Source of the DNA: an uncultured Ruminococcus sp.
GTDB taxonomy: Bacteria > Bacillota > Clostridia > Oscillospirales > Ruminococcaceae
Assembly: GCA_946534605.1 (NCBI GenBank)
Contig: CAMNCU010000003.1
Coordinates: 954-64,953, forward strand
Direction of reading: 5' to 3'
Length of the DNA stretch: 64,000 nt
Of the stretch, positions 39,364-64,000 are shown one piece after another (position 1 is the first letter of the stretch; each line of letters opens with the position of its first letter). The position numbers and the translations under genes were made by a program. The notes under the pieces were generated by a model. It did no database searches, was not told where the DNA came from, and saw nothing but the letters and a program-made list of their open reading frames with translations.

Positions 39364-39391
39364 CAGCACAGTTTTTCCGGAAACTGTGCTG
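39364..39391 (+). terminator. Intrinsic terminator
   Basis: Arms CAGCACAGTTT and AAACTGTGCTG followed by a T-rich tract. Confidence 0.65.
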
Positions 39392-39398
39392 ATTTCTC

Positions 39399-39427
39399 TT
39401 GCAAAATCCGGAAAAATATGCTATAAT
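39399..39427 (+). promoter_or_regulatory. Sigma-A-type promoter
   Basis: TTGCAA (39399..39404), 17-nt spacer, TATAAT (39422..39427). Confidence 0.6.
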
Positions 39428-39460
39428 CTAATTATTACCATAATTCAGGAGGATGATTTC

Positions 39461-48587: not shown

Positions 48588-49505
48588 TTACTGTACCCGG
48601 ACAAGCAGGGTTTCTGTCAGGGCGTGAAGGAATTCACGGGTTTCGGATTCCGGAAAGCTGCTGAGTATGCCGTGCGCCCGTGCCGTCAGTTCCGCGGCGC
48701 GGATTTTCGCCTTTTCGATACCGAGCAGCGTCACAAAGGTCTGCTTGCCTTCTTCGGCATCGCTTCCGGCAGGTTTTCCGAGCTGTTCGGAAGTGCTTGT
48801 CACATCCAGAATATCATCAATCATCTGGAATGCCAGTCCCACAGCCAGACCGTAGCGTCCGGCGGCTTCGGCTTGTTTCGGCGTACCGCCGCCGCAGACA
48901 ATCCCCATCTGACAGGAAGCTTTCATGAGTGCGCCGGTCTTGCCCAGACACATGGCTTCCAGCTGTTCCGGGGTGACGGTCTCCGCAGTCTCGAACAGCA
49001 TGTCCAGCATCTGACCGCCCACCATGCCGGAAGTGCCTTCTTCCTGGGCGAGAATCTGAATCAGCTGTGTTTTCTGTTCCGGGGTGAGGGCTTTGTCCTC
49101 GGCAAGAATCTGGAACGGGGCGCAGATTAAGCCGATTCCGGCGAGAATCGCTGTCGCTTCGCCGAATGCCTTGTGACAGGACGGCTTTCCGCGCCGGAAA
49201 TCGTCGTTGTCCATTGCCGGAAGGTCATCGAAAATCAGGGAAGACGTATGTGTCATTTCCATTGCTGCCGCGGCAGCGGCTGCCTGTTCCGGAGAGCCGC
49301 CGCAGAGTTCGCAGAAGGCGTAAACCATAGCCGGACGAATCCGTTTTCCGCCGGCGGTCAGGGAGTGGCGCATGGCTTCAAACAGAGAAGCTGCCGGAAT
49401 CTGACGCTGTTCCGCCTGACGGGAAAGACTGTCCACGACTGCTGAAAGATGTTGTTCTGTCTGTGAAGCGTAAGTTTGCAGACGAAGTTTCTGGTTATCG
49501 TTCAT
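48588..49505 (-). CDS. ispA: Farnesyl/geranyl-diphosphate synthase portion with its own candidate start
   Basis: 305 aa from ATG 49505, preceded by AGAGAGGAA. Polyprenyl synthase motifs FDDLPAMDNDDFRRGKP and FQMIDDILD. Confidence 0.7.
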   Translation of the reverse strand: MNDNQKLRLQTYASQTEQHLSAVVDSLSRQAEQRQIPAASLFEAMRHSLTAGGKRIRPAMVYAFCELCGGSPEQAAAAAAAMEMTHTSSLIFDDLPAMDNDDFRRGKPSCHKAFGEATAILAGIGLICAPFQILAEDKALTPEQKTQLIQILAQEEGTSGMVGGQMLDMLFETAETVTPEQLEAMCLGKTGALMKASCQMGIVCGGGTPKQAEAAGRYGLAVGLAFQMIDDILDVTSTSEQLGKPAGSDAEEGKQTFVTLLGIEKAKIRAAELTARAHGILSSFPESETREFLHALTETLLVRVQ

Positions 49506-50420
49506 GATGATGTTCCTCTCTTTATCGCAAGCCCGGACGGTGAGACTGCCGTCGGGCAGAATGACTCTTAACATGCTGTCCGCCGGAATCTGACGGACAG
49601 AAACAACCGGTTCACCTGAAAGTGTCAGGATTTCCGGGGAATGATGACTTGTGGCGAGTTCCGCCGCCGCCGAGGGCGTGGAAGCCCGTAAATCCGCGGC
49701 TTTATCGGTCAGGGTGAAGTCTGTCTCGTGTCCGACGGCAGAAATCACAGGGGTCTGACACGCGCTGACCGCCCGGACAACGGCTTCGGCATTGAAGACG
49801 CGCAAATCTTCCGCAGAACCGCCGCCGCGTCCCAGAATCAGAACGTCAAACTGCTGTGAATCTGCCGTTTGCAGTGCCTGGCAGATTTCGGCTTCTGCGT
49901 GAATGCCCTGTACATGTACCGGAAAGACGACCGCTTCCGCCGCCGGAGAACGCCGTTTCAGGATATGCAGAATATCCTGTAGTGCCGCGCCCTGTGCCGA
50001 GGTAATCACGCCGATTTTCCGGGGATTCTCCGGAATTTTCTTTTTTCCGGATTCGGTCAGAATGCCTTCGCTGTGAAGTTTCTGTTCTTTCTGCTGAAAG
50101 CCGCGCTGTACGCTGCCGATACCCTGTAATAACATATCCGTCACCCGAAGCTGAAACGTTCCCGAAACCGGATAGAAATCCGCATTGGCGGCGGCAATCA
50201 CCTGCAAGCCGTTTTCCGGCTGAAAGCGCAGACGCTGTGCCAGATGTGCGAACATGACCGCCCGGACAGAACTCTCCTCATCGCGGAGAGAAAAAAACAG
50301 ATGTCCTTTTTCTTCCCGGTGCAGATTTGCGATTTCGCCTTCGGTCAGAAGCAGCTGTAATTTCCGGTTTTTCCGGATGAGCGTTTCTGCCTGCCGGTTG
50401 AGTTCAGTGATACTCAGCAT
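48588..50420 (-). CDS. xseA: Single open frame joining a shortened exodeoxyribonuclease VII large subunit (XseA) to farnesyl-diphosphate synthase (IspA)
   Basis: N-terminal ~305 aa carry an XseA OB fold plus catalytic core (LILGRGGGSAEDL, GHETDFTL, ASTPSAAAEL). After ...VRACDKERNII the frame continues with no stop into MNDNQKL... (IspA). Start MLSITELN at 50420 chosen by similarity to XseA N-termini. Confidence 0.6.
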   Translation of the reverse strand: MLSITELNRQAETLIRKNRKLQLLLTEGEIANLHREEKGHLFFSLRDEESSVRAVMFAHLAQRLRFQPENGLQVIAAANADFYPVSGTFQLRVTDMLLQGIGSVQRGFQQKEQKLHSEGILTESGKKKIPENPRKIGVITSAQGAALQDILHILKRRSPAAEAVVFPVHVQGIHAEAEICQALQTADSQQFDVLILGRGGGSAEDLRVFNAEAVVRAVSACQTPVISAVGHETDFTLTDKAADLRASTPSAAAELATSHHSPEILTLSGEPVVSVRQIPADSMLRVILPDGSLTVRACDKERNIIMNDNQKLRLQTYASQTEQHLSAVVDSLSRQAEQRQIPAASLFEAMRHSLTAGGKRIRPAMVYAFCELCGGSPEQAAAAAAAMEMTHTSSLIFDDLPAMDNDDFRRGKPSCHKAFGEATAILAGIGLICAPFQILAEDKALTPEQKTQLIQILAQEEGTSGMVGGQMLDMLFETAETVTPEQLEAMCLGKTGALMKASCQMGIVCGGGTPKQAEAAGRYGLAVGLAFQMIDDILDVTSTSEQLGKPAGSDAEEGKQTFVTLLGIEKAKIRAAELTARAHGILSSFPESETREFLHALTETLLVRVQ

Positions 50421-51339
50421 AGCGCAGAGCGGCATAAACCGCAGTTCCGGCGGCGTTATCGCGTGAAAATTCCGGTTCGGCAAAGGCGGTTTCTGCCGGA
50501 ACGGATTCTTTCAGGAAGCTTTGCAGATACTGATTCGACATCACGCCCCCGGCATAGAGTACTGGAATCCCGGAATGCTGTTCCAGGGCTTTTTCCGTCA
50601 TGGCGCGGAGAACTTCCCCGACTGCCGAAAGACAGAATTTCGCGACTTCCGGCTTTTCGTGCTTCTGCAGCATGTCTCTGCACTGGTTCTCCAGTCCCGA
50701 AAGACAGCAGTCAAGCCCTTTCATAACGGGCTTGTACCGGAACTGCTTCCGGCTTTGTGAAGCTGATTCTTCCAGAGCCGCGCCGCACGGGAACGGTAAG
50801 CCCATCATCAGCCCGACACGGTCAATCAGCTGACCGGCTTTCAGGTCGAGCGACGACGATACCGGCAGAATGTGCAGAAGTCCGGCTTCGTCCGGCTGAC
50901 ACAGAACACAGTCCGTCGTGCCGCCGCTGACGTGAAACGCCAGAAACTCACGGTTCAGCCAGTTCAGCTTTCCGGCGGAATACAACGCCGCCAGAATATG
51001 TCCGTTCTGATGGCTTGTCCCATAAACCGGAATCCCTAACGCTTGTCCCGTCATCTTCGCCGCGCCTTCTCCGCAGAGAAAACACGGCATGTATGACCCT
51101 TCTGTGTTCCGGGGTCTGACGGAAACGCCAATCGCCGAAAGTTCCGGAAGTGCCAGTTCTGCCAGTACTTCCGGAAGCTGTACCGTATGATGAAAGACCG
51201 CGTCACTCTGCCGGAGTCCCTTTTCTCCCGGCTTGACCGGAAGCAGTTTCTTCGCCTGTAATATCTTCCCCGTTCCGGTATCGTAAACCGCCGCCGAGGT
51301 CGTATAATTACTGGTATCCAGTCCGAGAAAGACGCTCAT
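50404..51339 (-). CDS. Kae1/TsaD-like (peptidase M22 / ASKHA fold) protein
   Basis: 311 aa with N-terminus VFLGLDTSNYTTSAAVYD and an actin-like ATPase pattern. This is not a canonical TsaD sequence, so the call is at family level only. Confidence 0.45.
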   Translation of the reverse strand: MSVFLGLDTSNYTTSAAVYDTGTGKILQAKKLLPVKPGEKGLRQSDAVFHHTVQLPEVLAELALPELSAIGVSVRPRNTEGSYMPCFLCGEGAAKMTGQALGIPVYGTSHQNGHILAALYSAGKLNWLNREFLAFHVSGGTTDCVLCQPDEAGLLHILPVSSSLDLKAGQLIDRVGLMMGLPFPCGAALEESASQSRKQFRYKPVMKGLDCCLSGLENQCRDMLQKHEKPEVAKFCLSAVGEVLRAMTEKALEQHSGIPVLYAGGVMSNQYLQSFLKESVPAETAFAEPEFSRDNAAGTAVYAALRYAEYH

Positions 51340-52133: not shown

Positions 52134-52679
52134 TTACTTGACTTCAAAAATCCTGATATTTTCGGCAGGAATACTGGTTTCTTCCAGAATGATTTCTTTC
52201 ATGACCGCCGCGCCGGAAGCGTCCAGCCCGTCGGTACGGACAACGACCTTCGCGCTCTGCCCGTCCAGATAGACGACGCAGTCAGAAAAGCCCTGCGATT
52301 TAATCAGCGATTCGATAGTGCCTTCTTTTTCGATAAGACTTGCGACTTCGGCAGCGTCGAGCGCGGCGGTCACGGCTTCGTCATCGGTGACATCGCCGCC
52401 GCCAATCATCGTCTGTAAGGTCTGGACGGCTTCGTCACGGCTGACCGTCTTTTCCAGTCTGGCTTTCGCGAAATAGTCGGCAGAAGGGTCAGGCTCTGCG
52501 CTGACGAATTCTGTATCTCCATAATGCGGCGTATCGTTTTCCAGCTCTGTGACGGGCGTGGAGACCGTCAGACCCGTGCGCGAGTAAGTATAGTTCACAT
52601 AGACTGCCGCCGCGAGCAGGACGGTCAGACAGCTGAGAATCAGCTGTTTCTTTCCGATAATCAGAGAAGGCTTCTGCAT
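52134..52679 (-). CDS. spoIIIAH: Stage III sporulation protein AH
   Basis: 181 aa with an N-terminal TM segment (LILSCLTVLLAAAVYVNY) and a YscJ/FliF-like C-terminal domain. Last gene of the spoIIIA set. Confidence 0.75.
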   Translation of the reverse strand: MQKPSLIIGKKQLILSCLTVLLAAAVYVNYTYSRTGLTVSTPVTELENDTPHYGDTEFVSAEPDPSADYFAKARLEKTVSRDEAVQTLQTMIGGGDVTDDEAVTAALDAAEVASLIEKEGTIESLIKSQGFSDCVVYLDGQSAKVVVRTDGLDASGAAVMKEIILEETSIPAENIRIFEVK

Positions 52680-52693
52680 GTGTTATCATCCTT

Positions 52694-53185
52694 TCAGGGT
52701 ATGTTGTCCAGTTTTGTGACATAAATCTGTGAGAGTTTCAGACCGCAGGCGACGGAGACTGTCTGGTAGACGATTTCCTGAACGGTCACCGCGCCGCCGC
52801 CCTCACAGGCGACGACGACACCCGTCACTGCCGGAAGCGATACCGATTCGACAAGGGCTTCCTTCTTCGTACCGCCGACGGTAACATAACGGTTCTGGGA
52901 ATCCTGTGCATAATGACAGGTCTCACTGCCGGAAAGCGTCACCAGAACTTCCGCTCTGCCGACACCGTCAATCTGACAGAGCATTGCTGAAAGTTCCTTC
53001 TGGAGTGCCGTCCGGTAGGCTTCCTGACTGGTGATTTCCGGAAGTTCTGCGGATTCCGGCGTTTCTTCCTGGCAGGACGACAGAACCGTGCAGAGAATCC
53101 CAATCAGCCCGATGAATACCAGAATATGCACCAGATATTCTTTTTTAAGGCTGGCTTTGTACCGATTCCAGAATTTCCGAAACAT
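52694..53185 (-). CDS. spoIIIAG: Stage III sporulation protein AG
   Basis: 163 aa with an N-terminal TM segment and the conserved C-terminus VTGVVVACEGGG...VSVACGLKLSQIYV. Confidence 0.8.
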   Translation of the reverse strand: MFRKFWNRYKASLKKEYLVHILVFIGLIGILCTVLSSCQEETPESAELPEITSQEAYRTALQKELSAMLCQIDGVGRAEVLVTLSGSETCHYAQDSQNRYVTVGGTKKEALVESVSLPAVTGVVVACEGGGAVTVQEIVYQTVSVACGLKLSQIYVTKLDNIP

Positions 53186-53600
53186 GAAGATTCACCCCCT
53201 CACCGAGCAGTTCCCGGAGCGTTCTGAGCGTCTGCTGAAAGTCGTCACAGGTCACACTGACATCACTAATAGATATGCAGTGATTCTCGTCAATATGCAG
53301 AGAAACGGAAATTTCGCTGCAGGAAATGCCCTTCTGCTCCAGAACGGAAGCAAGGGTCTGTTTTACGGTCTGTTCGGTGAGAGCGAGGGCGGTGCGGTCA
53401 GCCTGTGACTGCTGAACACTTCCCGGAATATCAGAGAATTCCGGACGGACAAACGCCGGAAGCAGGCTCACCAGAAACATCAGCGAAACCAGAAAGCGCA
53501 CCTGTTTCCGGAGTGCGTTTTCCGGACAGAGGAACAAGCAGACCGAGACGGCAATACTCAGCAGGCAGACGGTCAGCACGGAAGATTTCAGTGTTTCCAA
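53145..53600 (-). CDS. spoIIIAF: Stage III sporulation protein AF
   Basis: 151 aa from TTG 53600, 6 nt after AAAGGAG. Two N-terminal TM segments, as in SpoIIIAF. The track's ATG 53699 has no RBS and would translate a hairpin repeat. Confidence 0.65.
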   Translation of the reverse strand: METLKSSVLTVCLLSIAVSVCLFLCPENALRKQVRFLVSLMFLVSLLPAFVRPEFSDIPGSVQQSQADRTALALTEQTVKQTLASVLEQKGISCSEISVSLHIDENHCISISDVSVTCDDFQQTLRTLRELLGEGVNLHVSEILESVQSQP

Positions 53601-53628
53601 GTTTATCTCCTTTCTGGCTTGCACCTTT

Positions 53629-53751
53629 GTGAACAGATGAGAATCACCGTCAAGGGGCTGGCTTTTAAGCCCCTTGCGGTTATTCTTGTTCACACACATG
53701 TTTTACCGCAATATATTTCTATATATTATATAGCCACTTGCGGTAATTTTT
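53629..53751. repeat. Structured module A: long imperfect hairpin plus a second hairpin with an AT-palindrome loop and T-run
   Basis: Hairpin 53629..53693 (GTGAACA...TGTTCAC, with inner CAAGGGGCT / AGCCCCTTG). Hairpin TACCGCAA 53704..53711 / TTGCGGTA 53738..53745, whose loop contains CTATATATTATATAG, followed by ATTTTT. Confidence 0.6.
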
Positions 53752-53862
53752 GCGGCAATCCGGCGGCAGAGGGCGGCACGGCTGAACGCGCGTTCAAAAA
53801 TGAAAAATGTAAAGTCGACACGACAAAATCAGGGGGAAGATGCCCTTTTCTGGTTTTGCGTT

Positions 53863-53972
53863 TGTCAATGAACGAGCGGCAGGGTTACAGGGAACGGACT
53901 TTAAGTCCCCTGTTGCTCATTGACAGGGACAATATTTTTCTATATTATATAGGGTGATTTCCCTGTTTTTTT
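53863..53972. repeat. Structured module B (diverged copy of module A)
   Basis: Hairpin 53863..53925 (TGTCAATGA...TCATTGACA, inner ...GGACTTTAAGTCC...). Hairpin ACAGGGA 53923..53929 / TCCCTGT 53960..53966, whose loop contains CTATATTATATAG, followed by a T-run. Confidence 0.6.
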
Positions 53973-54013
53973 CCCTAGGCAGCAAAACAATACTAACTGA
54001 CCGGGAGAAAACT

Positions 54014-54156
54014 TGCGCAAAACGAAGATTTTGTGCAGTTCCTGAATACGGCTTCCACCCGGGTGGAAAAAACGTTCACCCGAGTGAACAGAATTTGTAA
54101 ACTCGAGTTTACAAAATGTTGAGTCGACTCAACAAAAATGTGACATCAATGTCACA
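54014..54156. repeat. Phased array of six different short palindromes/hairpins directly after the spoIIIAE stop
   Basis: 54014..54037 TGCGCAAAA-cgaaga-TTTTGTGCA. 54053..54068 TTCCACCCGGGTGGAA. 54074..54089 GTTCACCCGAGTGAAC. 54094..54115 TTTGTAAACTCGAGTTTACAAA. 54118..54133 GTTGAGTCGACTCAAC. 54139..54156 TGTGACATCAATGTCACA. Confidence 0.7.
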
Positions 54157-54164
54157 AAATCCCG

Positions 54165-55175
54165 TCATGTACTGCTCACCGCCGCCAGAATCCCCGTACT
54201 CACACAGAACATCACCCCGAATGAAGCCGAGACCGAAAACCCTACCGAAATCATCGCTTCCAGATTCCGGAACAGCCTCTGCAACGATTCCAGCGCGAAG
54301 ACTTCTGATACTGCCGCCGCTGTCCCCGTCAGTATCTTCCAGAGAAAAAATTCGATAATTATCGGCAGTAATATCGATAAGACCGCGATAACCCCCGTCA
54401 TCCCGGCAGTCGATTTCAGAACGTTCAGACTGCCCAGCACTGCCGCGTAAGCGTCCGATACTGCTCCCCCGACAAACGGCACAGCCCCGGCTATCGCGTA
54501 TTTCGCAGCTTTTGTTCCGGCTCTGTCCGCCGTTACGGAAACGACACTCTGCACTGACAGAAAGCCCAGAAACAACGCCATCAGAAAGCCAAGCACCCAG
54601 ACCGTGAACTTCTGAAACAGCGTCAGAATACCGTTCAGAGAGAGTTCCGGCGTGACTGCCTCCGTCAGACTGACTGCCAGTCCCATCGTCAGCACCGGAA
54701 ACAGCACCCGAACGGCGATTTCCAGCGCAAGATTACAGAGCAGCAGCACTGCCCCCTGATACCCTGCCGAAGCTGTCACATGTCCGCTGACCGCCAGAAT
54801 CCCCCCGAAGATTCCCGAGAAGGTCACCATAAAATCTGCCGAATGCGTCAGCACTTCCGCTGCCTGCTGAAAGGCTTCCGTCAGCGGACTGATGAGAATC
54901 CCCACCGCACACAGTACCGCTGTGACATCACAGATTTTTGAGATTCCGGATTTCTCGCTCCGGAGACTTCCGGCAAGCGCGGAAAGCAGAATCACCCCTG
55001 TGAGCAGTCCGAGCGTCTGCAAGGGCGCGGAAATCCGGTTCTGTACCATTTCCAGAACCTGTCCGGCGAATTCCGGAAGCTGTAATTCCGACAGCGATTC
55101 TGTATCGGGAATTTCCGCCGGCGCGTCTTCCAGAAGCGTTTTCAAAATTTCATCATAAGTATAGTCCTGATTCAC
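54165..55175 (-). CDS. spoIIIAE: Stage III sporulation protein AE
   Basis: 336 aa polytopic membrane protein, Gly/Ala-rich TM segments. Position and overlap with spoIIIAD match the operon order. Confidence 0.8.
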   Translation of the reverse strand: MNQDYTYDEILKTLLEDAPAEIPDTESLSELQLPEFAGQVLEMVQNRISAPLQTLGLLTGVILLSALAGSLRSEKSGISKICDVTAVLCAVGILISPLTEAFQQAAEVLTHSADFMVTFSGIFGGILAVSGHVTASAGYQGAVLLLCNLALEIAVRVLFPVLTMGLAVSLTEAVTPELSLNGILTLFQKFTVWVLGFLMALFLGFLSVQSVVSVTADRAGTKAAKYAIAGAVPFVGGAVSDAYAAVLGSLNVLKSTAGMTGVIAVLSILLPIIIEFFLWKILTGTAAAVSEVFALESLQRLFRNLEAMISVGFSVSASFGVMFCVSTGILAAVSST

Positions 55176-55558
55176 TGTATCATCTCCAGTACGGTTTCCG
55201 AGAGCGTCACGAACAGCGGCAGTGCGAGTACCAGAAGCAGAACTCTGCCGCAGAGTTCAACCGCCGTTCCGAGCGCGTTTTCTCCTGCGTCCCGGCAGAT
55301 GTCCGTTCCAAACTGCGTCAAGTACGAAATTCCGACTGCCTTACACAGAATCCCGAAATAAGAAGCGTCAACATTTCCCCGGTGCAAGGTTTGTTCCGCT
55401 GTGGATAAGATTCTTTCCGCGTCCGGCAGAATCTGCACTATCACCAGAAGGCACAGCCCGATACTCAGCAGTAATCCGTAACTTCTCTGGTACTGTTTCA
55501 GCACCAGCACCAGAATACAGCCGATAATGCATAAGATAATTATCTGCTCTGTTCTCAC
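55172..55558 (-). CDS. spoIIIAD: Stage III sporulation protein AD
   Basis: 128 aa with four TM segments and the conserved GISYLTQFGTDICRDAGE block. Confidence 0.8.
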   Translation of the reverse strand: MRTEQIIILCIIGCILVLVLKQYQRSYGLLLSIGLCLLVIVQILPDAERILSTAEQTLHRGNVDASYFGILCKAVGISYLTQFGTDICRDAGENALGTAVELCGRVLLLVLALPLFVTLSETVLEMIQ

Positions 55559-55749
55559 AATCCGAACACCGTCCTGACCGTCTCGAACAGTTCGCTAATC
55601 TGGTCGACGATAAGCATTAGCACAACAATCAGCCCGGCGAGAACGGTCATCATGGCTTGTTCGTCGCGGTCTGACTTCTTCAAGACCAGACTGAGTACGG
55701 AAACGATAATTCCGATTCCGGCGATTTTGAAAATCAAATCCAGTTCCAC
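55555..55749 (-). CDS. spoIIIAC: Stage III sporulation protein AC
   Basis: 64 aa with two TM segments (IFKIAGIGIIVSVLSLVLKKS..). Operon position fits. Confidence 0.8.
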   Translation of the reverse strand: MELDLIFKIAGIGIIVSVLSLVLKKSDRDEQAMMTVLAGLIVVLMLIVDQISELFETVRTVFGL

Positions 55750-55776
55750 ATGATACAGCCCCTTACTCCTGAATTT

Positions 55777-56268
55777 TTACAAAAACATGACCGCGCACAC
55801 CGCACCGCCAAGCCAGCCGAGCGACTGGTATAACCGACATTTCTGCGCACTGACCGCCTGACACGCTTCCAGAGCGGTACACATCTGCGCCCGGCACAGT
55901 GTCAGCACGGCGGTCTGCCCCTGCAAATCCGATTTTCCCAGTTCACTCCCTAACAGCAGAAGAATCCGCCTTGCTTCTTCCGGCAGATGACTTTCCTCAA
56001 GAGCCTGATTCCAGAGCGTTTCCGGCGGAAGCCCCGGTACAGGGTTCAGCTTCCGGACGAAGTCAAGATTCTGATACACGGCTTTTCCGGAAAGAATCCC
56101 GAATAATTCTTCCAGATTCAGATGCTGATACTGCATATAGGTCAGGCAGTCTTCCAGAAGTAATAATAAATTCTGATAAGTTCTGACCTGATTCCGGATT
56201 CCGCAAGCCGCATACATGCCGCACCCGGCACAGCAGACCATCATCAGCAGAATCCCCGGAAACTTCAT
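55777..56268 (-). CDS. spoIIIAB: Stage III sporulation protein AB
   Basis: 163 aa with an N-terminal TM segment and a GspF-like cytoplasmic domain. Operon position fits. Confidence 0.75.
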   Translation of the reverse strand: MKFPGILLMMVCCAGCGMYAACGIRNQVRTYQNLLLLLEDCLTYMQYQHLNLEELFGILSGKAVYQNLDFVRKLNPVPGLPPETLWNQALEESHLPEEARRILLLLGSELGKSDLQGQTAVLTLCRAQMCTALEACQAVSAQKCRLYQSLGWLGGAVCAVMFL

Positions 56269-57137
56269 GACAGCCTCCTGATGGTCTGGACAGCACAGTC
56301 TTTCAGAAAGACCAGATTCCCGAACACAGACGCTTCCAGAAGCGGACGGAGAACAGTTCTGTTCCGGAGTTCGTCAGGGCTTCCGGCATGGCACGAAGCC
56401 GCGAACTTGACACCGCATCCGGAAGCCGTCAGAACAGCCTGTACATCTTCCGGGGTACTGATTTCATCACAAATCAGATATTCCGGATTCATCACGCGCA
56501 GAGCGGTCAGAATTCCGGCGGCACGCGGATAGTTATCGAAAATATCGGTCATTCTGCCGACATCATGAGAGGGCGCACCTCTCTGAACAGCGGCGAGTTC
56601 TCCCCTCTCGTCGATGAGAGCCGTCCGGCAGTGATTTCCGGCAATCCGGCAGAAATCGCGCAGATACGTCGTCTTACCGCTCCCGACTGTTCCGGCAATC
56701 AGCACACTGCCGGGACATTGTTTCCAGAGCTGTTCGGCAATGCCGGGATATTCGCCGGGGATTCTGAAATTCAGACTGCTGATATATTTCAGCGACTTGA
56801 CATTCTGATGTTCCCGGACAGCACTGCCGCAGATTCCGACACGGCATCCGCCCCGAATCGTCAGATATCCTTCTGACAGTTCCTGTTCAAAGCTGTAGAC
56901 CGAATAGGAACATACCGCCTGAAACGTCCGGGAAAGTTCCTCGAAGCTGACCGGAATTCCGGTATTCTGTTCCTTTCCCCGGATGACGATTCCGGCAGTT
57001 TTCTGATTCCGCAGGCGGATTTCCTGAATTTCGGCGCGTTCGGATTCCGGCATTCTGCTGAGATACTCCCGGACAGCACCGGGCAGATAGTTCAGGACTT
57101 CTTTCAGGCATTCGGCAGTGTTCAAGCTTCTGCACAT
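56265..57137 (-). CDS. spoIIIAA: Stage III sporulation protein AA (secretion-type ATPase)
   Basis: Walker A GTVGSGKTT and the N-terminus ...LKEVLNYLPGAVREYL...IQEIRLR, as in SpoIIIAA. The start is uncertain: ATG 57137 sits directly against its RBS, and TTG 57125 is an alternative. Confidence 0.8.
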   Translation of the reverse strand: MCRSLNTAECLKEVLNYLPGAVREYLSRMPESERAEIQEIRLRNQKTAGIVIRGKEQNTGIPVSFEELSRTFQAVCSYSVYSFEQELSEGYLTIRGGCRVGICGSAVREHQNVKSLKYISSLNFRIPGEYPGIAEQLWKQCPGSVLIAGTVGSGKTTYLRDFCRIAGNHCRTALIDERGELAAVQRGAPSHDVGRMTDIFDNYPRAAGILTALRVMNPEYLICDEISTPEDVQAVLTASGCGVKFAASCHAGSPDELRNRTVLRPLLEASVFGNLVFLKDCAVQTIRRLS

Positions 57138-57157
57138 CCTTTCTGTTAGCTTACTGC

Positions 57158-57187
57158 ATCTTATGCACAGCCTGTCCGTTTTATGAC
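57158..57187 (-). promoter_or_regulatory. Sigma-E-like sporulation promoter of spoIIIA
   Basis: Minus strand: GTCATA (57187..57182), 16-nt spacer, CATAAGAT (57165..57158). Compare the sigma-E consensus ATA-N16-18-CATACAnT. Confidence 0.4.
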
Positions 57188-57188
57188 A

Positions 57189-57222
57189 GAAAAACGGCTC
57201 ACCCGTAGGCAAGCCGCTTTTC
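57189..57222 (-). terminator. Terminator of the dockerin/serpin gene string
   Basis: Minus-strand hairpin AAAAGCGGCT...AGCCGTTTTT followed by a T-rich tract. Confidence 0.45.
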
Positions 57223-57268
57223 TTTGAGATATATCTAAGATTTCAGGAGAGTAAAATGCTGATGAAAT

Positions 57269-58297
57269 TTATTCTGTCAGACCGACAATCATTTTCATAA
57301 TCGTCAGAGAATCGGAAGCGTCGATTTTCTCGTCCTTGTTGGCATCCGCGGCGAGTTCCTGCGCAGAATTCAGCTTTTCTTTGCCGAGAATTGCTTTATT
57401 GAGAATAATCACATCCAGAATATTCAGTTTGTCGTCCAGATTCAAATCCCCGGCTTTGATTTCTACTGCTGCATCTGTAGGGAAAATTTCTTCCGGGTCA
57501 GGCTTTTTCACTATACGGAATTCAAAATCACATAATTCCAAAAAGCCCTGTTCCTGACAGTAATTTTTTATCCGGTCAATGTCTTCCTTTGTGTATGCTG
57601 TCACCGCTATGCTCATGCCTGTAACATTGAAAATACTCCCGTAATGATTGCGGGATACAAAACCCTCATATCCGTTGCTTTCCATGAATGCCTGAATCTG
57701 TTTTGCAGCCTCTGTTATGGACATTACCAGATTCTCATCCATCTGATAGACAAGATGATAGTCAATCGTATATTTTTCCGAAAAGCCCTGTTCTTCGCAG
57801 TAAGCTTCCATCAATTCTTTTATTTTTGTGCTTGCACACATGACAGTGAGAGAATTGTGGAAATAATCATAGAAAACGCGGTATGCATAGTCAGCCCCTG
57901 CCAGTTCACCGAGATATTTTTCCGTCTGCAATGCGGCGGAAATCAGCGCGTTCTTTTCTTCTTCGGGAAGTTCCGGAAGAATTTCACCGTCAAATTTCAG
58001 GAAAAACTGATATGTCACACCGTCTGTCAGATTTTCCTGCTGACAATATTCCATCATGTTGCTTTTTACATTTTCATAATGCGCCTGACTTCCGGTGTTT
58101 ACTACAACAGAAATGAGGTTCTGTTCTTCGTCACAGGTGATAGTATACAGCTGTACTGACGGCGGAATTGCATCTGCAATCTGATTGCAGATACTTTGTA
58201 CTGAAATTTCCGTTTCTCCGGCGAAAACGGGAATACTGATTTCGGACTGTATACAGCACAGGAACGCCAGCACAGCGGCTAAGAGTTTCTTTTTCAT
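57269..58297 (-). CDS. Secreted protein: three 'YCxEQGF' repeat modules plus a C-terminal dockerin
   Basis: ATG 58297 after GAGGTG, then a signal peptide. Modules end in MEYCQQENL, MEAYCEEQGF and KNYCQEQGF. Dockerin KAGDLNLDDKLNILDVIILNKAILGKEKLNSAQELAADANKDEKIDASDSLTIMKMIVGL (57272..57457). Confidence 0.65.
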   Translation of the reverse strand: MKKKLLAAVLAFLCCIQSEISIPVFAGETEISVQSICNQIADAIPPSVQLYTITCDEEQNLISVVVNTGSQAHYENVKSNMMEYCQQENLTDGVTYQFFLKFDGEILPELPEEEKNALISAALQTEKYLGELAGADYAYRVFYDYFHNSLTVMCASTKIKELMEAYCEEQGFSEKYTIDYHLVYQMDENLVMSITEAAKQIQAFMESNGYEGFVSRNHYGSIFNVTGMSIAVTAYTKEDIDRIKNYCQEQGFLELCDFEFRIVKKPDPEEIFPTDAAVEIKAGDLNLDDKLNILDVIILNKAILGKEKLNSAQELAADANKDEKIDASDSLTIMKMIVGLTE

Positions 58298-58330
58298 AAA
58301 AAGCACCTCGTTTCTGAAAATTTAAATAAT

Positions 58331-60418
58331 TTATGATTCAATGGACTTCACCGCGCCCATAAATACGGGCAGATGATTTTCCATATCGACAATCATATAG
58401 ACGAACGGTCTGTCGAGCGTGACAGTTTTATAGTCCATTACAGCGGTTACGCCGTCCATCTGGACGACTGTCACAGCGGCGGCACGAGTGCCTTCTTCGG
58501 TCACGTCGATATGCGTCTTATGCAGAACTTCCCCGATATGCAGAATATCCCATTCTGCCTGCATATCCGCCATTCTGGTGAAGTCGGCGTTCAGGGGGTC
58601 GAACGCGGTCGGCATACCCATTTCACAGAGGGGCTTTTTCAGCGTGATATCATAATCATAGCTGAACTTCGGCATTGATGTGTAAGTCTTGACAGAAACC
58701 GGGCTGGAAAGCGTATTCTGTAATGATTCGGCAGTCATGCCGGAAATATATTCATCTACAGAAATTCCCTCGTTCGGAAGCATTGCCGCGAAGGCGTATC
58801 TTCCGCCGTCATAATATTTATAGAATCCGGTCGCGGAATCGTCTTCCAGATAGGCATATTCTTCGGAATGCATCATGCTGACGGTTTCGGCAGAGCCGTC
58901 CCAGGCGGTAAAATCTCCGTCATGAACCTGATATTCCGAATCATAGGGATTCTGCCATTTTGCGTCGAAAGTGACGGCGTTAATCAGATACATCAGAGTA
59001 TCGGGGTCAATGGGCTGTTCAGGGTTGAGGACTTCCGGAATCATCCGGTCGGTCTTGTTGCTGACCCAGTTGTTAATATCTGTAACGGTAGAATCATCAA
59101 ACGGGGCTTTATAGGCATCGGCAGAGTAATAATCCGCATTGACTTTCAGGAAGTCCGGCAGAACCTGAAATCTTTCTTCAAAGTCGCGATACCAGATAGA
59201 ATTTGCCGTTGACAGCCGGCATTTGGCAGTATCCGGCTGACTGATTCGCTGTGTATACAGATACTGATTCAAATCATTGAGAGGCAGTCCGCCGAGAGTC
59301 TGTTCCATCTCGGAGAGCGTCTGCCCGTCCGCGCCGTTGGCAGTCATCGCGAGAGCCTGCATCACGGAATAAGGCGAAACAAGAACATTCTGTTCCGGAG
59401 TTTCCTGTTCGGCTTTCTGGAACAGATTCAGATAAAAGCCTGTCTGCGCCTGAATAAACGCATCATCAGCGGCTTTGCCCTCAACAGCATCTGACTGTAC
59501 AGACTTGCTTAAATTCACAGAAGCCGGGCTGAGAGCCTTGTCACTGGGTTTTTCGAGCAGTCCGACGATAGCTTTCATAATCGCCAGAGAATCGGAAGCG
59601 TCTATTTTCTCGTCCTTGTTGGCATCGGCGGCGAGTTCCTGAACGGAGTTCAGCTTTTCTTTGCCGAGAATCGCTTTATTGAGAATGATAACATCTAAAA
59701 TATTCAGTTTATCGTCAAGATTCAGGTCTCCGGCTTTGACAGTTACGTCCATACCTTCTACACCGGTTTCTGTAGGGTCTGGTTCTTCATCATCAGATGT
59801 CCATGCAATAAAAATAAAAGCATACTTTTCTGTAAAGCCCTGTTCCTGACAGAACGCCTTTACGGTTTCAAGCTGAGAATCTGCTTTTTCCCTGACTGCC
59901 TGATTTTCTTCTGAACTTGAGAACATTTCCGTTTCTGAAAGATATGCTGTCACCTGAATCAAACCATTGTTAGGAGCGGCAGTGATATAGTTCAGCTGAT
60001 TTTCATCAGCGAACTGATTGATTTGTTCAGCAATCTTCTGCTGACCGTTTTCCTCGGCGGTAAAGCGAATATCGAAATCATTCAGAAAGCCCTGTTCTTC
60101 GCAGTAAGCTTTGACGGTATCGAGATTCGCGCAAATCTTTTCCCAGTCGTAGTTGCTGTCATGGGAGGGAATTTCTATCGTCACGAAGATAACGGGTTCA
60201 GGTGTATAATCCACATTGCAGTGGATATATACAAAATTCTTTTTAAAGATAAAATTACTGATTTGATTACTCACATCACTGGAAGTCATTCTCCGGGTTT
60301 CTTCCTGCGTTTCTTCTTCGGTCGGCGCGAGGGTCACGGCATTTGCATTCAGGCTGATTCCGGTCTGGAAGCAGAGCAGTAAAGCGGCAATTCCTGCAAA
60401 AATTCTTGTTTTTTTCAT
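58331..60418 (-). CDS. Secreted protein: two 'YCxEQGF' modules, dockerin, serpin
   Basis: ATG 60418 after GAGGTG. Modules with VKAYCEEQGF and VKAFCQEQGF, dockerin (59558..59737), then a full serpin with hinge/RCL EEGTRAAAVTVVQMDGVTAVMDYKTVTLDRPF. Confidence 0.8.
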   Translation of the reverse strand: MKKTRIFAGIAALLLCFQTGISLNANAVTLAPTEEETQEETRRMTSSDVSNQISNFIFKKNFVYIHCNVDYTPEPVIFVTIEIPSHDSNYDWEKICANLDTVKAYCEEQGFLNDFDIRFTAEENGQQKIAEQINQFADENQLNYITAAPNNGLIQVTAYLSETEMFSSSEENQAVREKADSQLETVKAFCQEQGFTEKYAFIFIAWTSDDEEPDPTETGVEGMDVTVKAGDLNLDDKLNILDVIILNKAILGKEKLNSVQELAADANKDEKIDASDSLAIMKAIVGLLEKPSDKALSPASVNLSKSVQSDAVEGKAADDAFIQAQTGFYLNLFQKAEQETPEQNVLVSPYSVMQALAMTANGADGQTLSEMEQTLGGLPLNDLNQYLYTQRISQPDTAKCRLSTANSIWYRDFEERFQVLPDFLKVNADYYSADAYKAPFDDSTVTDINNWVSNKTDRMIPEVLNPEQPIDPDTLMYLINAVTFDAKWQNPYDSEYQVHDGDFTAWDGSAETVSMMHSEEYAYLEDDSATGFYKYYDGGRYAFAAMLPNEGISVDEYISGMTAESLQNTLSSPVSVKTYTSMPKFSYDYDITLKKPLCEMGMPTAFDPLNADFTRMADMQAEWDILHIGEVLHKTHIDVTEEGTRAAAVTVVQMDGVTAVMDYKTVTLDRPFVYMIVDMENHLPVFMGAVKSIES

Positions 60419-60452
60419 AATCAAGCACCTCATTTCTGAAAATTTAAATAAT

Positions 60453-61985
60453 TTATGATTCAATAGATTTCACCGCGCCCATGAATACAGGCAGATGATT
60501 TTCCATATCAACAATCATATAGACGAACGGTCTGTCGAGCGTGACGGTTTTATGTTCTTCAACGGCATCATTTCCGGCTAACATGACGGCTGTCACAGCG
60601 GCGGCGCGAGTGCCTTCTTCGGTCACGTCGATATGGGTCTTATGCAGAACCTGCGCGATATGCAGAACATCGCTAGGGTCTTTCATCTCCGCCATTCTGG
60701 TGAAATCGGCATTCCATTCGTCGAACGCGGTCGGCATACCCATTTCACAGAGGGGCTTTTTCAGCGTGATATCATAATCATAGCTGAACTTCGGCATTGA
60801 TGTGTAAGTCTTGACAGAAACCGGATGGGAAAGCGTATTCTGTAATGATTCGGCAGTCATACCGGAAATATAGTCATCTACGGAAATTCCCTCGTTCGGG
60901 AGCAGAGCCGCGAATGCGTATCTTCCGCCGTCATAATATTTATAGAATCCGGTCGCGGAAGCATCTTCCAGATAGTAATATTCTTCAGAGTTCATCATGC
61001 TGACTTTCTGCGCCGAGCCGTCCCAGGCGGTGAAATCGCCGTCATGAACCTGATATTCGGAATCATAGGGAGACATCCACTTGGCATCGAATGTGACGGC
61101 GTTGATTAAGAACATCAGCATATTAGGGGCAATCGGCTGTTCAGGGTCGAGAACGCCCGGAATCATTCTGTCGGTCTTATTGCTGACCCAGTTGTTGACA
61201 TCTGTAATGGTAGAATCATCAAACGGGGCTTTGAACGCATCGGCGGAATAATAATCCGCGTTGACTTTCAGGAAGTCCGGCAGAACCTGAAATCTTTCTT
61301 CAAAATCTCTGTACCAGATGGAATTTGCCGTTGACAGCCGGCATTTCTCTGTATTCGGCTGAGAGGTTCTTTGTGTATACAGATACTGATTCAAATCATC
61401 CAGAGGAAGTCCGCCGAGGGTCTGTTCCATCTCGGAGAGGGTCTGACCGTCCGCACCGTTGGCAGTCATGGCGAGAGCCTGCATCACCGAATAAGGCGAA
61501 ACCAGAACATTCTGTTCCGGGGTCTGTGCTTCGGCTTTCTGGAACAGATTCAGGTAAAAGCCCGTCTGTGCCTGAATAAACGCATCATCGGCGGCTTTGC
61601 CCTCGACAGCATCAGATTTGACGGCTTTACTCAAATTCGTGGAAGCCGGGCTGAGAGCCTTGTCACTGGGCTTTTCGAGCAGACCGACGATAGCTTTCAT
61701 AATCGCCAGAGAATCGGAAGCGTCGATTTTCTCGTCCTTGTTGGCATCGGCGGCGAGTTCCTGCACGGAAGTCAGCTTTTCTTTGCCGAGAATCGCTTTA
61801 TTGAGAATGATAACATCTAAAATATTCAGTTTATCGTCAAGATTCAGGTCTCCGGCTTTGACAACGACTTCAGCATTATCGCCAATTTCCGTAGGTTCTT
61901 CGGCGGCATTCGCGGTCAGGCTGATTCCGGTCTGGAAGCAGAGCAGTAAAGCGGCAATTCCTGCAAAAATTCTTGTTTTTTTCAT
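60453..61985 (-). CDS. Secreted dockerin-serpin
   Basis: ATG 61985 after AAGGAG, then a signal peptide, dockerin (61680..61859) and a serpin with hinge/RCL EEGTRAAAVTAVMLAGNDAVEEHKTVTLDRPF. Confidence 0.8.
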   Translation of the reverse strand: MKKTRIFAGIAALLLCFQTGISLTANAAEEPTEIGDNAEVVVKAGDLNLDDKLNILDVIILNKAILGKEKLTSVQELAADANKDEKIDASDSLAIMKAIVGLLEKPSDKALSPASTNLSKAVKSDAVEGKAADDAFIQAQTGFYLNLFQKAEAQTPEQNVLVSPYSVMQALAMTANGADGQTLSEMEQTLGGLPLDDLNQYLYTQRTSQPNTEKCRLSTANSIWYRDFEERFQVLPDFLKVNADYYSADAFKAPFDDSTITDVNNWVSNKTDRMIPGVLDPEQPIAPNMLMFLINAVTFDAKWMSPYDSEYQVHDGDFTAWDGSAQKVSMMNSEEYYYLEDASATGFYKYYDGGRYAFAALLPNEGISVDDYISGMTAESLQNTLSHPVSVKTYTSMPKFSYDYDITLKKPLCEMGMPTAFDEWNADFTRMAEMKDPSDVLHIAQVLHKTHIDVTEEGTRAAAVTAVMLAGNDAVEEHKTVTLDRPFVYMIVDMENHLPVFMGAVKSIES

Positions 61986-62015
61986 AACAAACACACTCCT
62001 TATAAGATAAATAAA

Positions 62016-62990
62016 TTATTGATTTTGATTTTCGGAATTGAAAAACAGATTCCGGAATTCTTCTTCGCTGATGTCAGCACTGCGGAACAGATAGTAATTT
62101 TCTTCGCCCTCGAACTGTACCGCGGCGGCTGTTCCGTAAGGCATTCCCTCGATAAGATAGGCATTGCCGATATTTTCCACTAATTTCTGTGAGCCGTCCG
62201 GATAGCGGACAGTGACATCAATGGTATCGAACCATTCGCCGACGAGCTCCGGGCTGACAGTGTTTCCGGTCAGGCAGAAGACAGCATCTTCTCCGGAATC
62301 GTTGCCCAAGCTGTTTTTCGCCAGATGAAGCGTAATTCTCGGAAAGGCGAACGCGATAGACGCCCCCTGTTCGGTGAGTTCGTCCGGAACGGTATCCGGA
62401 ATTTCTTCTGTCTGTCCTGCGATGATGGGAAGCGTTTCCGATTCAGCAGGAATCGTCGTTGTTTCGGGGATGGTTTCCGTCGGCGGAACGGTTTCCGGAA
62501 TGATTTCCGGCTGTTCGGTAATGGGAACAGCTTCCGGAACTTCCACAAGTTCAGGGGCTTCGGTGACAGGTTCAGGCGCGTTCTGAATCGGCTGAACGGT
62601 CTGTGTTGTTGTCTGAATCATCACAGAAGTTTGGATTTCTGCGGAAGTCTGTATAGCTGTTGTACTGATTTCGGGAAGCGTCTCGGACGGGCTTTCCGGA
62701 ACGGTTTCGGGAATTCTTGTTTCTGTGATGATAGCCGGAACGGATTCCGGAACTGTTGTTGCAGATGTTGTTTCTGATTCTGTTTGAACGGCAGTTTCTT
62801 CCGGAACGTTCGGGACTGCCGGAAAGTTCTGCCGGTTCTGCCACGGATGCAGACCCATCACCACCACGAAGCCGAAACTTGCCATCACGGGCGCATACCG
62901 GAAAAACAGAACCTTCTGCCGTTGTTTCTTTCTGAGATAGTCATCACGCGCGGAAAAGACCGCCTGCGCCATCTGCTGATATGTTTTCAT
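62016..62990 (-). CDS. Putative anti-sigma factor (single-pass membrane protein with an extracytoplasmic domain)
   Basis: ATG 62990 overlaps the sigma stop (ATGA). Short cytoplasmic N-terminus, TM segment (YAPVMASFGFVVVMGL), a Thr/Pro/Glu-rich linker and a globular C-terminal domain. Confidence 0.55.
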   Translation of the reverse strand: MKTYQQMAQAVFSARDDYLRKKQRQKVLFFRYAPVMASFGFVVVMGLHPWQNRQNFPAVPNVPEETAVQTESETTSATTVPESVPAIITETRIPETVPESPSETLPEISTTAIQTSAEIQTSVMIQTTTQTVQPIQNAPEPVTEAPELVEVPEAVPITEQPEIIPETVPPTETIPETTTIPAESETLPIIAGQTEEIPDTVPDELTEQGASIAFAFPRITLHLAKNSLGNDSGEDAVFCLTGNTVSPELVGEWFDTIDVTVRYPDGSQKLVENIGNAYLIEGMPYGTAAAVQFEGEENYYLFRSADISEEEFRNLFFNSENQNQ

Positions 62991-63526
62991 AAGCAACCGC
63001 CTTCCTTTTCGAGTTGAAGTTTCAGTGATTTTCTGGCATTGTACAGAAGATTTTCGACCTGTTTTCTGGTTTTCCGCATAATCCGGGCGATTTCGTCATT
63101 GCTGAACTGCTCGAAATAAGAAAGATAAATCGCCTGCTGATAGTCCGGTTTCAGATTCCGGATAGCCTGATGCACGATAATTTTCTGTTCTTCCTGAATG
63201 TAGTCCTGTTCGATATCCTGTAAATCGGCGAATTCGGCGGCATCGTCGAGCGGAACGGACGGGCGGTGTTTCCGTAGCATATCGCGCGTGACGTTTCTGC
63301 CGATAGCGTAAAGCCATGTTTTAAAAGAAGAATTTCCGCGGAACTTAGGCTTTTTAATCGCAAGTCTGATGAAAGTTTCCTGCACACAGTCTTCTGCATC
63401 ACTGATATTGTTGGTAAAACTGACGAGATACAACAGCAGACCGTCTTTATAGTCGCGGATTAATTCCGTCATGCCGCTGTCATCTCCCTCGATATAACGG
63501 CGGTAGCTACTTGCACCGTTATCCAT
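62987..63526 (-). CDS. ECF-type sigma-70 family RNA polymerase sigma factor
   Basis: Region 2 (DAEDCVQETFIRL...FKTWLYAIGRN) and region 4 (LSYFEQFSNDEIARIMRKTRKQVENLLYNARKSL). The start could be ATG 63526 or GTG 63556. Confidence 0.8.
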   Translation of the reverse strand: MDNGASSYRRYIEGDDSGMTELIRDYKDGLLLYLVSFTNNISDAEDCVQETFIRLAIKKPKFRGNSSFKTWLYAIGRNVTRDMLRKHRPSVPLDDAAEFADLQDIEQDYIQEEQKIIVHQAIRNLKPDYQQAIYLSYFEQFSNDEIARIMRKTRKQVENLLYNARKSLKLQLEKEGGCL

Positions 63527-63602
63527 GAATTGGGGAACTCCTTTCTGCGCTTTCACTTATTAGACGAGAGGAGCGAAGCAAAACACTAAGTGAATTTTAA
63601 AA

Positions 63603-63638
63603 TTTTTTGAAAAAAATTTCTCCCGGCATTCCGGGAGA
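63603..63638 (-). terminator. Intrinsic terminator after queA
   Basis: TCTCCCGG / CCGGGAGA hairpin followed on the minus strand by a T7 run (63611..63617). Confidence 0.7.
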
Positions 63639-63644
63639 GAACTT

Positions 63645-64000
63645 TCAGGCGATAAACATGGCATCTCCGAACGAGAAGAAGCGGTATTTTTCTTCCACGG
63701 CGATTCTGTAGGCATTCATCGTATGTTCATAGCCCATAAAGGCAGAAACGAGCATAATCAGCGTCGACTCCGGCAGATGGAAGTTTGTGATAAGTCCGTC
63801 AATGACTTTGAATTCATAGCCCGGATAGATAAAGATATCGGTATCACCTTCACAGGCAGTCAGACCGTCAGGGCATCGCTGGGCGGCGGATTCGAGCGTT
63901 CGGCAGGAAGTCGTTCCGACGGAAATCACTCTTCCGCCGTTTTTCTTAGTTTGATTAATTAAATCTGCTGTTTCTTGAGGTAACATAAAATGTTCGGAAT
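63645..64000 (-). CDS. queA: S-adenosylmethionine:tRNA ribosyltransferase-isomerase, C-terminal part (gene runs off the right edge)
   Basis: ...[37 protein letters not shown]...[12 protein letters not shown] matches the QueA C-terminus. The frame stays open upstream of the track's ATG to base 64000. Confidence 0.85.

Follow-up and report, generated by a model that had tools for sequence, protein, structure and literature searches.

A predicted ECF sigma/anti-sigma pair is linked to genes for dockerin-bearing serpins in an uncultured Ruminococcus

A 64-kb stretch of DNA from an uncultured Ruminococcus sp. (contig CAMNCU010000003.1), referred to here as the window, carries five genes on its minus strand that encode an extracytoplasmic function (ECF) sigma factor, a membrane protein predicted to be its anti-sigma factor, two serpins that bear a dockerin, and a third dockerin protein built of repeated modules. 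All coordinates given below are positions in the window. We consider it probable that the block 57188..63638 is one operon with a single ECF promoter, self-activating and located ahead of the sigma gene, and that it is controlled by the mechanism proposed below. The block had been read as a regulated unit in an earlier note on this DNA, and this reading is supported by the recurring linkage of the genes in other genomes, by an ECF-type footprint before the sigma gene, and by the absence of a transcription stop between the genes. An identical set of five proteins is also encoded on contig DGUB01000045.1 of the uncultured Ruminococcus-like metagenome-assembled genome GCA_002393815.1.

Each of the five open reading frames (ORFs) proposed in the earlier note as head-to-tail genes was found at the coordinates given there (Table 1); the block lies between the queA gene (upstream) and the spoIIIA operon (downstream). 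The start of the membrane-protein gene overlaps the sigma stop codon in an ATGA, as read directly in the sequence, and the spacers downstream of the anti-sigma gene, previously put at about 30-34 nt, measure 30, 34, and 33 nt. Each of these three spacers holds a ribosome-binding site, and no stable RNA structure was found when they were folded. The terminator-like hairpin placed after the last gene in the earlier note is strong, as none of 200 shuffled sequences matched it in folding, and a second strong terminator precedes the block and closes queA. Strong terminators flank the block only at its two ends, with none between the genes, and the queA terminator insulates the unit against transcription from upstream. 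The many terminator-like matches that a consensus scan gave inside the genes were disregarded, since most are antisense to them on the plus strand; an Rfam scan of 56500-64000 detected no RNA family. The near-identity noted earlier between two of the spacers is real, but it is no evidence for a separate regulatory site. Both spacers lie inside a 131-nt block, with copies 95% identical, that runs from the 3' end of the serpin gene through the spacer to the start codon of the following gene. Their likeness is a by-product of tandem duplication, and a role as regulatory element was ruled out, since a ribosome-binding site is their sole content.

The product of the first gene matches the Pfam domains Sigma70_r2 (aa 22-88) and Sigma70_r4_2 (aa 117-168), as well as the superfamily model TIGR02937 (105 bits against a cut-off of 42.9), and none of the named equivalog models in NCBIfam reaches its own cut-off. 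The presence of regions 2 and 4 only, the small size, and the superfamily score place this protein among the ECF (group 4) sigma factors. Its nearest solved structures are those of sigma-H/AlgU type, SigW, and RpoE. The N-terminus, MDNGxSSYRR, is kept among homologues, and the gene is preceded by the ribosome-binding site AAAGGAG at 63538-63544. The analogy with the sigma-I/RsgI system drawn in the earlier note did not survive as a relationship, as the protein is of the ECF type and no relative of that system; the SigI model is absent among the best 25 of the 100 NCBIfam families that it matched.

The AlphaFold model of the membrane protein, built on eight homologues, begins with one long helix (aa 4-53), of which about 30 cytoplasmic residues ending in RKKQRQK come before the membrane segment. 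The N-terminus is placed inside the cell because this basic stretch precedes the transmembrane segment. The predicted local distance difference test score (pLDDT) is below 50 over aa 62-215, which belong to a 165-residue linker composed mostly of T, E, P, I, V, and A, with no lysine and two arginines. Beyond the roughly 150-165 disordered residues, the extracytoplasmic globular domain anticipated earlier does appear in the model, as a beta-rich fold with a C-terminal helix (aa 219-322, pLDDT 81-90). Homologues conserve the N-terminal helix, membrane segment, and C-terminal domain, whereas of the linker only the composition is kept. Across wider relatives, the cytoplasmic helix and the transmembrane segment are the best-conserved portion, and the C-terminal domains are swapped between lineages. 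From its genomic coupling and topology, we predict that this protein binds and inhibits the sigma factor, and its cytoplasmic helix may work like short anti-sigma elements, without being a family member by sequence.

The C-terminal sensor domain belongs to no described family and has no known fold match. No family was detected in the membrane protein with Pfam and NCBIfam at E <= 0.1; this includes the RsgI-type domain (Pfam) and the RsiV extracellular domain, for which Foldseek against the PDB also gave no match at E <= 0.001. The best hit of a Foldseek fold search with the anti-sigma model was the C-terminal domain of NisI (E = 0.057), ahead of noise that resembled PH, PilZ, and lipocalin folds, and a profile search of PDB sequences with the membrane protein came back empty. 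Among 1.84 billion representative proteins, phmmer found ten true relatives of the sensor domain, all of them anti-sigma-like proteins of about 300-340 aa or fragments thereof. Four more matches were rejected as spurious repeat proteins (TPR-like, one of them with no Pfam match, PAS, and RTX).

When one genome from each GTDB species was scanned with an alignment of the membrane proteins, 30 related loci emerged. At all of them, the N-terminal 55 residues belong to a protein whose gene directly follows that of an ECF sigma homologue (42-89% identity), typically with overlapping or abutting stop and start codons. The contigs of the initial few relatives have the order sigma factor, membrane protein, dockerin protein(s), dockerin-serpin(s). 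The core form of the C-terminal domain was found in ten species besides that of the window (loci L011-L019 and L041), and a dockerin-serpin gene lies at most 3 kb downstream in 9/9 of these loci with sufficient contig, L011 being cut off. The sigma, anti-sigma, and dockerin-serpin genes of L019/L009 stay together between unrelated genes in a different neighborhood. The sensor domain had appeared to be absent from L020-L040 by tblastn; this was overturned by a profile, which shows a diverged form in L020, L021, L023, L027, L028, and L032 (E from 1e-7 to 1e-10) and marginally in L022.

Dockerin genes follow directly downstream in all 17 loci with the core or diverged domain and enough contig (L020 is cut off), versus none within about 8 kb, by an iterated dockerin profile, in the 14 loci with a different C-terminal domain. 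It should be noted that the kinship of the genomes inflates these counts; several of the loci lacking the domain are nonetheless also labelled Ruminococcus. The cargo of the diverged loci consists of a signal peptide, a sequence of no assigned function (often the same modules as in the window), and a dockerin. In L021, the sigma pair precedes module-dockerin genes only, and in L032, which has a different neighborhood from that of the window, a 1038-aa module-dockerin-serpin gene starts 16 nt after the anti-sigma gene. The survey of genomic context suggested in the earlier note therefore shows that at least ten other species-level genomes have genes for a sigma factor, a membrane protein, and a dockerin-serpin linked in this way, two of them in a different neighborhood. 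As judged from sequence, the conserved cargo is dockerin proteins in general, often module proteins with no serpin, and the unit is broader than serpins.

Alignment of the 100 nt upstream of the sigma genes (14 regions) revealed two invariant blocks, CTTAG(T/A)(G/A)TTT and (C)GTC(T/A)AA, with a variable spacer of 15 nt between them and an A/T-rich stretch ahead of them. ECF promoters typically have a -10 element of the CGTC type. The site before the sigma gene is the sole exact match in the window, and in a position-weight scan of both strands it scores 40 bits, with no other site above 12 bits. Of the two places that the earlier note proposed to search for an ECF-type motif, upstream of 63526 and of 61985, the first has the motif, but no copy precedes the serpin genes; neither exact matching nor the weight matrix found one before the other dockerin genes of the 64 kb. 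As the motif occurs once in the window, the cargo genes would be reached by read-through from this single promoter. At L017, a module-dockerin gene upstream of the sigma gene has its own terminator and its own copy of the motif, and additional copies precede dockerin-protein genes in L028 and L032; these copies argue that the cargo genes are direct targets of the sigma factor. The sigma gene is accompanied by a presumed cognate anti-sigma gene and a CGTC-type, predicted autoregulatory promoter, as expected of an ECF member. A scan of metagenome contigs with CTTAGTGTTT-N15-CGTCTAA for further regulon members was discarded, as its 30 matches were chance hits: all lay on unrelated contigs (27-57% G+C), and none had a gene for a sigma factor, dockerin, or serpin close by; the motif is therefore informative through its conserved position alone. 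We also observed five tandem repeats with a 75-nt period before the sigma gene of L021 (7086-7415), each with a complete ECF motif, and two such motif-bearing repeats in L020 (34-138). They may represent promoter amplification that tunes autoregulation.

Table 1 Features of the five-gene block and its flanks in the 64-kb window
Feature	Position	Strand	Basis
ECF (group 4) sigma-70 family sigma factor, 179 aa	62987..63526	-	Sigma70_r2, Sigma70_r4_2, TIGR02937
Predicted single-pass anti-sigma factor, 324 aa	62016..62990	-	Genomic coupling, AlphaFold model, conservation pattern
Dockerin-serpin 1, 510 aa	60453..61985	-	Pfam Serpin 1.1e-80, Dockerin_1 1.5e-09
Module-module-dockerin-serpin 2, 695 aa	58331..60418	-	Pfam; module profile
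Three-module dockerin protein, 342 aa	57269..58297	-	AlphaFold model; Pfam Dockerin_1, no other Pfam domain
Intrinsic terminator of upstream queA	63619..63638	-	8-bp stem, 6 G-C pairs, then T-run
Predicted autoregulated ECF promoter, TTAGTGTTT-N15-CGTCTAA	63560..63589	-	Footprint upstream of sigma gene
A/T-rich stretch	63591-63620	-	
-35-like block	63581-63590	-	
-10-like block, CGTCTAA	63560-63566	-	
Intrinsic terminator ending the unit, ahead of the spoIIIA operon	~57188..57223	-	-26 kcal/mol, z = -4.95, U-run
Cytoplasmic helix of membrane protein	aa 1-30		AlphaFold model
Transmembrane segment of membrane protein	about aa 31-50 (62841-62900)	-	
Disordered T/E/P-rich wall-spanning linker	aa 51-215 (62346-62840)	-	
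Novel beta-rich sensor domain	aa 216-324 (62019-62345)	-	
Signal peptide, serpin 1	aa 1-27	-	
Dockerin_1, serpin 1 gene	aa 44-99 (61689-61856)	-	Pfam
Dockerin_1, serpin 2 gene	aa 229-284 (59567-59734)	-	Pfam
Dockerin_1, gene 57269..58297	aa 282-337 (57287-57454)	-	Pfam
Reactive-centre loop, serpin 1	60552-60620	-	
Reactive-centre loop, serpin 2	58430-58498	-	
Three modules of gene 57269..58297	57512-58207	-	AlphaFold

The Pfam Serpin domain spans aa 139-505 of serpin 1 (60471-61571) and aa 324-690 of serpin 2 (58349-59449), covering positions 2-367 of the 370 in the model (E = 1e-80 and 3e-83), and the closest solved structure is tengpin (E = 2e-92). Both paralogues and their orthologues have the small-residue hinge EEGTRAAAVT. 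A full-length fold and a hinge with Gly at P15, Thr at P14, and an Ala-rich P12-P9 are those of inhibitory serpins, and both proteins presumably inhibit proteases. Serpins 1 and 2 are 88% identical over the dockerin and serpin regions, in protein and DNA alike, which identifies them, at the sequence level, as tandem duplicates. The distal reactive-centre loop differs between them at 9 of 13 positions, compared with 39 of 455 elsewhere (Fisher p = 3e-7), and varies among orthologues too. Counted from the hinge, P1 is Asn in serpin 1 and Val in serpin 2; this assignment is tentative, because the loop is about three residues longer here than in alpha-1-antitrypsin. The signal peptides of all three cargo proteins (61905-61985, 60338-60418, and 58225-58297) have a common Cys-containing core, LLCFQ or LCCIQ, and a kindred core, ILCCAQ, returns in the cargo of distant loci such as L021; no canonical lipobox is present.

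In the three cargo proteins, Dockerin_1 scores 36-38.6 bits against a cut-off of 22.9, and both calcium-binding loops, DLNLDDKLNILD and DANKDEKIDASD, are intact in the dockerin alignment, which identifies type I dockerins. They are mutually 87-93% identical and share about 50% identity with those of two other proteins of the window, a GH10 xylanase and a CAP-domain protein. We expect them to bind cohesin, and because they are near-identical, the three products presumably share one cohesin partner. The other dockerin proteins of the window, all on the plus strand, are a xylanase with the architecture CBM22-CBM22-GH10-CBM9-dockerin (17062-20304), a DUF4874-DUF4832-dockerin protein (29110-31488), and a protein with four CAP/SCP domains and a dockerin (39386-41404). 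Their presence indicates that the organism has a cohesin-dockerin system, with the partner encoded elsewhere in the genome.

The "modules" named in the earlier note are real domains: the model of gene 57269..58297 has three tandem alpha-beta-beta-alpha-beta domains (pLDDT about 85-95), and a profile made from them detects two more in the serpin 2 gene, at about aa 45-215. In the related loci, all genes that match this profile lie downstream of the anti-sigma gene, except for one in L017 that precedes the sigma gene. Foldseek relates the module protein to the tandem ring-building-motif repeats of PrgH, CdsD, and YscD (E ~3e-6) and, more weakly, to the BON domains of OsmY and BonA, with TM-scores of just 0.2-0.3 and identities of 9-14%. 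As modelled, the modules resemble the ring-building motif and BON domains in fold only, with no membership in either family. Their interpretation as protease-inhibitor domains of the subtilisin-propeptide or PepSY-like kind was dropped, since no inhibitor family appeared among these matches.

Two observations concern neighboring genes. The ring-building-like modules (57269-60418) directly adjoin the spoIIIA operon (52134-57212), whose SpoIIIAG and SpoIIIAH use the same ring-building fold. This adjacency is probably a coincidence, as the unit sits elsewhere in L019 and L032. Further along the minus strand, a 631-aa ORF (48588-50483) combines the OB fold and catalytic region of the exonuclease VII large subunit (aa 23-365) with a polyprenyl synthetase (aa 367-594), and L003 contains a called 613-aa gene with the same combination. 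The ORF could be a genuine xseA-ispA fusion, or a short xseB could be concealed in it.

In the mechanism that we propose, the protein encoded by the overlapping gene, a membrane protein of type-II topology, would keep the sigma factor at the membrane and use its short cytoplasmic helix as the anti-sigma element. Its 165-residue disordered linker would span the cell wall and expose the beta domain of about 105 residues outside, at the level of the cellulosome. An external cue would inactivate the anti-sigma factor; regulated proteolysis, the route known from other single-pass ECF anti-sigma factors, is the likeliest way. The released sigma factor would then boost its own transcription and that of the three downstream genes. 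The three cargo proteins would be secreted via Sec signal peptides and would dock by their type I dockerins onto the same cohesin, which would place two serpins with different reactive-centre loops there together with the module protein. We favor a cue that is linked to the surface of the cellulosome or to its attack by proteases.

Several points weigh against this single-operon mechanism. Co-transcription is a step that we infer, as are the binding of the sigma factor by the anti-sigma factor and the proteolytic release. Nine of the ten other core loci occupy the queA-spoIIIA site of the window, so that much of the conservation reflects shared descent from one ancestral insertion. The ECF coupling is specific to a clade and no general property of dockerin-serpins; a four-serpin cluster (L042), from the same assembly as L021, has no sigma pair, and an R. 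flavefaciens gene for a leucine-rich repeat (LRR)-dockerin-serpin (L046) has none adjacent to it. At a more distant dockerin-serpin gene (46% identity; L044, 6001-9590), a terminator is followed by an unrelated ECF sigma gene (28% identity) and one for a 453-aa partner, an arrangement due either to chance or to a second, independent ECF-serpin pairing. A Pfam search for cohesin gave no match in the nine largest other ORFs of the window, with the smaller ones left unscanned. Serpin 1 could have independent basal expression from a weak match of the sigma-70 type (9 of 12 bases) that lies at 62015..62044 and ends 30 nt before this gene; such matches are barely commoner here than in shuffled sequence (16 versus 10 expected). 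If the sigma pair regulated only itself or distant genes, and the dockerin genes were served by a constitutive promoter in the 3' end of the anti-sigma gene, this match and the single insertion site, which explains most of the conservation, would both be accounted for. We regard mere adjacency of this kind as improbable, because the linkage outlasts relocation (L019, L032), the 30-nt spacer is unstructured and terminator-free, the detached module-dockerin gene of L017 bears its own copy of the ECF promoter, and the sensor domain goes with downstream dockerin genes in 17/17 versus 0/14 loci. It is also true that no anti-sigma domain (class I or zf-HC2 type, about 80-90 aa) is recognisable in the membrane protein and that no model of such a domain matches it; its cytoplasmic part, a single helix, has only some 30 residues. 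The protein could on these grounds be an unrelated, co-translated surface protein. This seems very improbable to us, given that it follows the sigma gene at 30/30 loci, typically with overlapping or abutting codons, and that a conserved helix and transmembrane segment with swapped C-terminal domains are the pattern typical of modular anti-sigma factors.

Two readings of the cue can be distinguished. The C-terminal domain could bind a plant polymer, scaffoldin or cohesin, or the dockerin and module products of the unit itself, so that the unit would tune the accessory complement of the cellulosome in the manner of RsgI-type sensors and would have no direct connection with proteases. That the sensor domain is found only beside dockerin-protein genes, whether serpins are present or not, agrees with this, and surface sensing that controls cellulosomal genes has a precedent in sigma-I/RsgI (PMC4711584, PMC10328401). 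However, the domain matches no carbohydrate-binding module, cohesin, other fold (Foldseek found nothing better than E = 0.057), or family, and its profile matches anti-sigma factors only and no other protein; we hold such sensing to be possible, if on balance unlikely. A more specific version of the favored mechanism, and no alternative to the operon model, is that foreign serine proteases clip the exposed tether or sensor domain in place of a site-1 protease. Intramembrane cleavage would then free the sigma factor, and the dockerin-tethered serpins made in response would extinguish the signal in a self-limiting loop. Consistent with this, the cargo of the core clade always includes serpins, which are serine-protease inhibitors, the tether is long and predicted to be disordered, and the reactive-centre loops diversify fast in paralogues and orthologues, as expected if they track outside proteases. 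Precedents are the protease-induced serpin of bifidobacteria, as outlined in PMC8201313, and sigV-rsiV, in which the anti-sigma factor binds lysozyme, itself the stress agent (PMC4183432, PMC5014341). On the other hand, L021 and L023, with a diverged sensor domain, carry dockerin-module proteins and no serpin, and the T/E/P-rich linker with its lack of lysine and its two arginines resembles ordinary wall-spanning linkers, with no specific evidence of a bait. This version seems to us the less likely of the two and rather doubtful.

In the full-text literature, we found no description of a unit that joins an ECF/anti-sigma pair to dockerin-serpins, in Ruminococcus or otherwise, in agreement with the novelty suspected in the earlier note. 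Its statement that dockerin-serpins are known from C. thermocellum is also right. Cellulosomal serpins have been known since 2006; they include the dockerin-serpin PinA of that species (Kang 2006 and O Cuiv 2013, as cited in PMC12484212). R. flavefaciens FD-1 has tandem SIGN-Doc-SERPIN genes (PMC2930009). These proteins share with ours the order signal peptide-dockerin-serpin, the tandem paralogues, and a presumed protection of the cellulosome from serine proteases. In contrast, the accounts of them in those papers describe no dedicated regulator, and one of the serpins here has two additional N-terminal modules.

The closest working analogy, as we see it, is the sigV-rsiV operon, of the sigV-rsiV-oatA type of ECF operon found in Bacillus, Enterococcus, and Clostridioides (PMC4183432, PMC5014341, PMC2836378). 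There too, an ECF sigma factor and a single-pass anti-sigma factor with an extracytoplasmic sensor domain come first, a secreted or envelope countermeasure follows in the same operon, and the promoter is self-activating, as predicted here. However, an RsiV-type domain is lacking in our protein, and the cargo is dockerin-tethered serpins and modules instead of peptidoglycan-modifying enzymes. The biomass-sensing sigma-I/RsgI pairs that control cellulosomal genes in C. thermocellum (PMC4711584, PMC10328401, PMC6582324) resemble the unit in having a membrane anti-sigma factor, a long linker, an outward sensor, and dockerin-bearing cellulosome targets, whose control is presumed in our case. The unit differs from them in its 179-aa ECF sigma factor with regions 2 and 4 only, in a sensor that is no carbohydrate-binding module, and in targets located in the same operon.

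The closest biological analogy may be the protease-induced serpin operon of bifidobacteria; in Bifidobacterium breve, this operon is autoregulated and depends on a two-component system (Alvarez-Martin 2012, as cited in PMC8201313). On the summary given there, both cases involve a gut bacterium, a dedicated envelope sensor beside a serpin gene, and autoregulation (predicted here), but the B. breve system uses a histidine kinase and a response regulator, its serpin is described with no dockerin, and the phylum is different. An expression table for C. thermocellum lists the cellulosomal serpins as weakly expressed, with no change from cellobiose to pretreated poplar (PMC3990059). Control of dockerin-serpins by a dedicated surface sensor would imply a specific inducing condition.

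ECF signalling and cellulosomal serpins are of known kinds; their coupling, the sensor domain, and the modules are new. Three elements of the unit lie outside current family databases: an ECF sigma/anti-sigma group with a distinctive promoter, an extracytoplasmic sensor domain with about ten representatives among 1.84 billion proteins, and a secreted alpha-beta-beta-alpha-beta module that is confined to this regulon in the loci examined. The promoter of about 30 nt, the 179-aa sigma factor, and the 105-aa sensor domain offer an experimental handle for ligand or cleavage screens. If foreign proteases do trigger the response, an enzyme from outside would act as the site-1 protease through a sensor domain, and in a unit with a module, of no described family. 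For the biology of the rumen, the unit suggests that fibre degraders exert active control over how their surface enzyme complexes are defended against the proteases of competitors or of the host.

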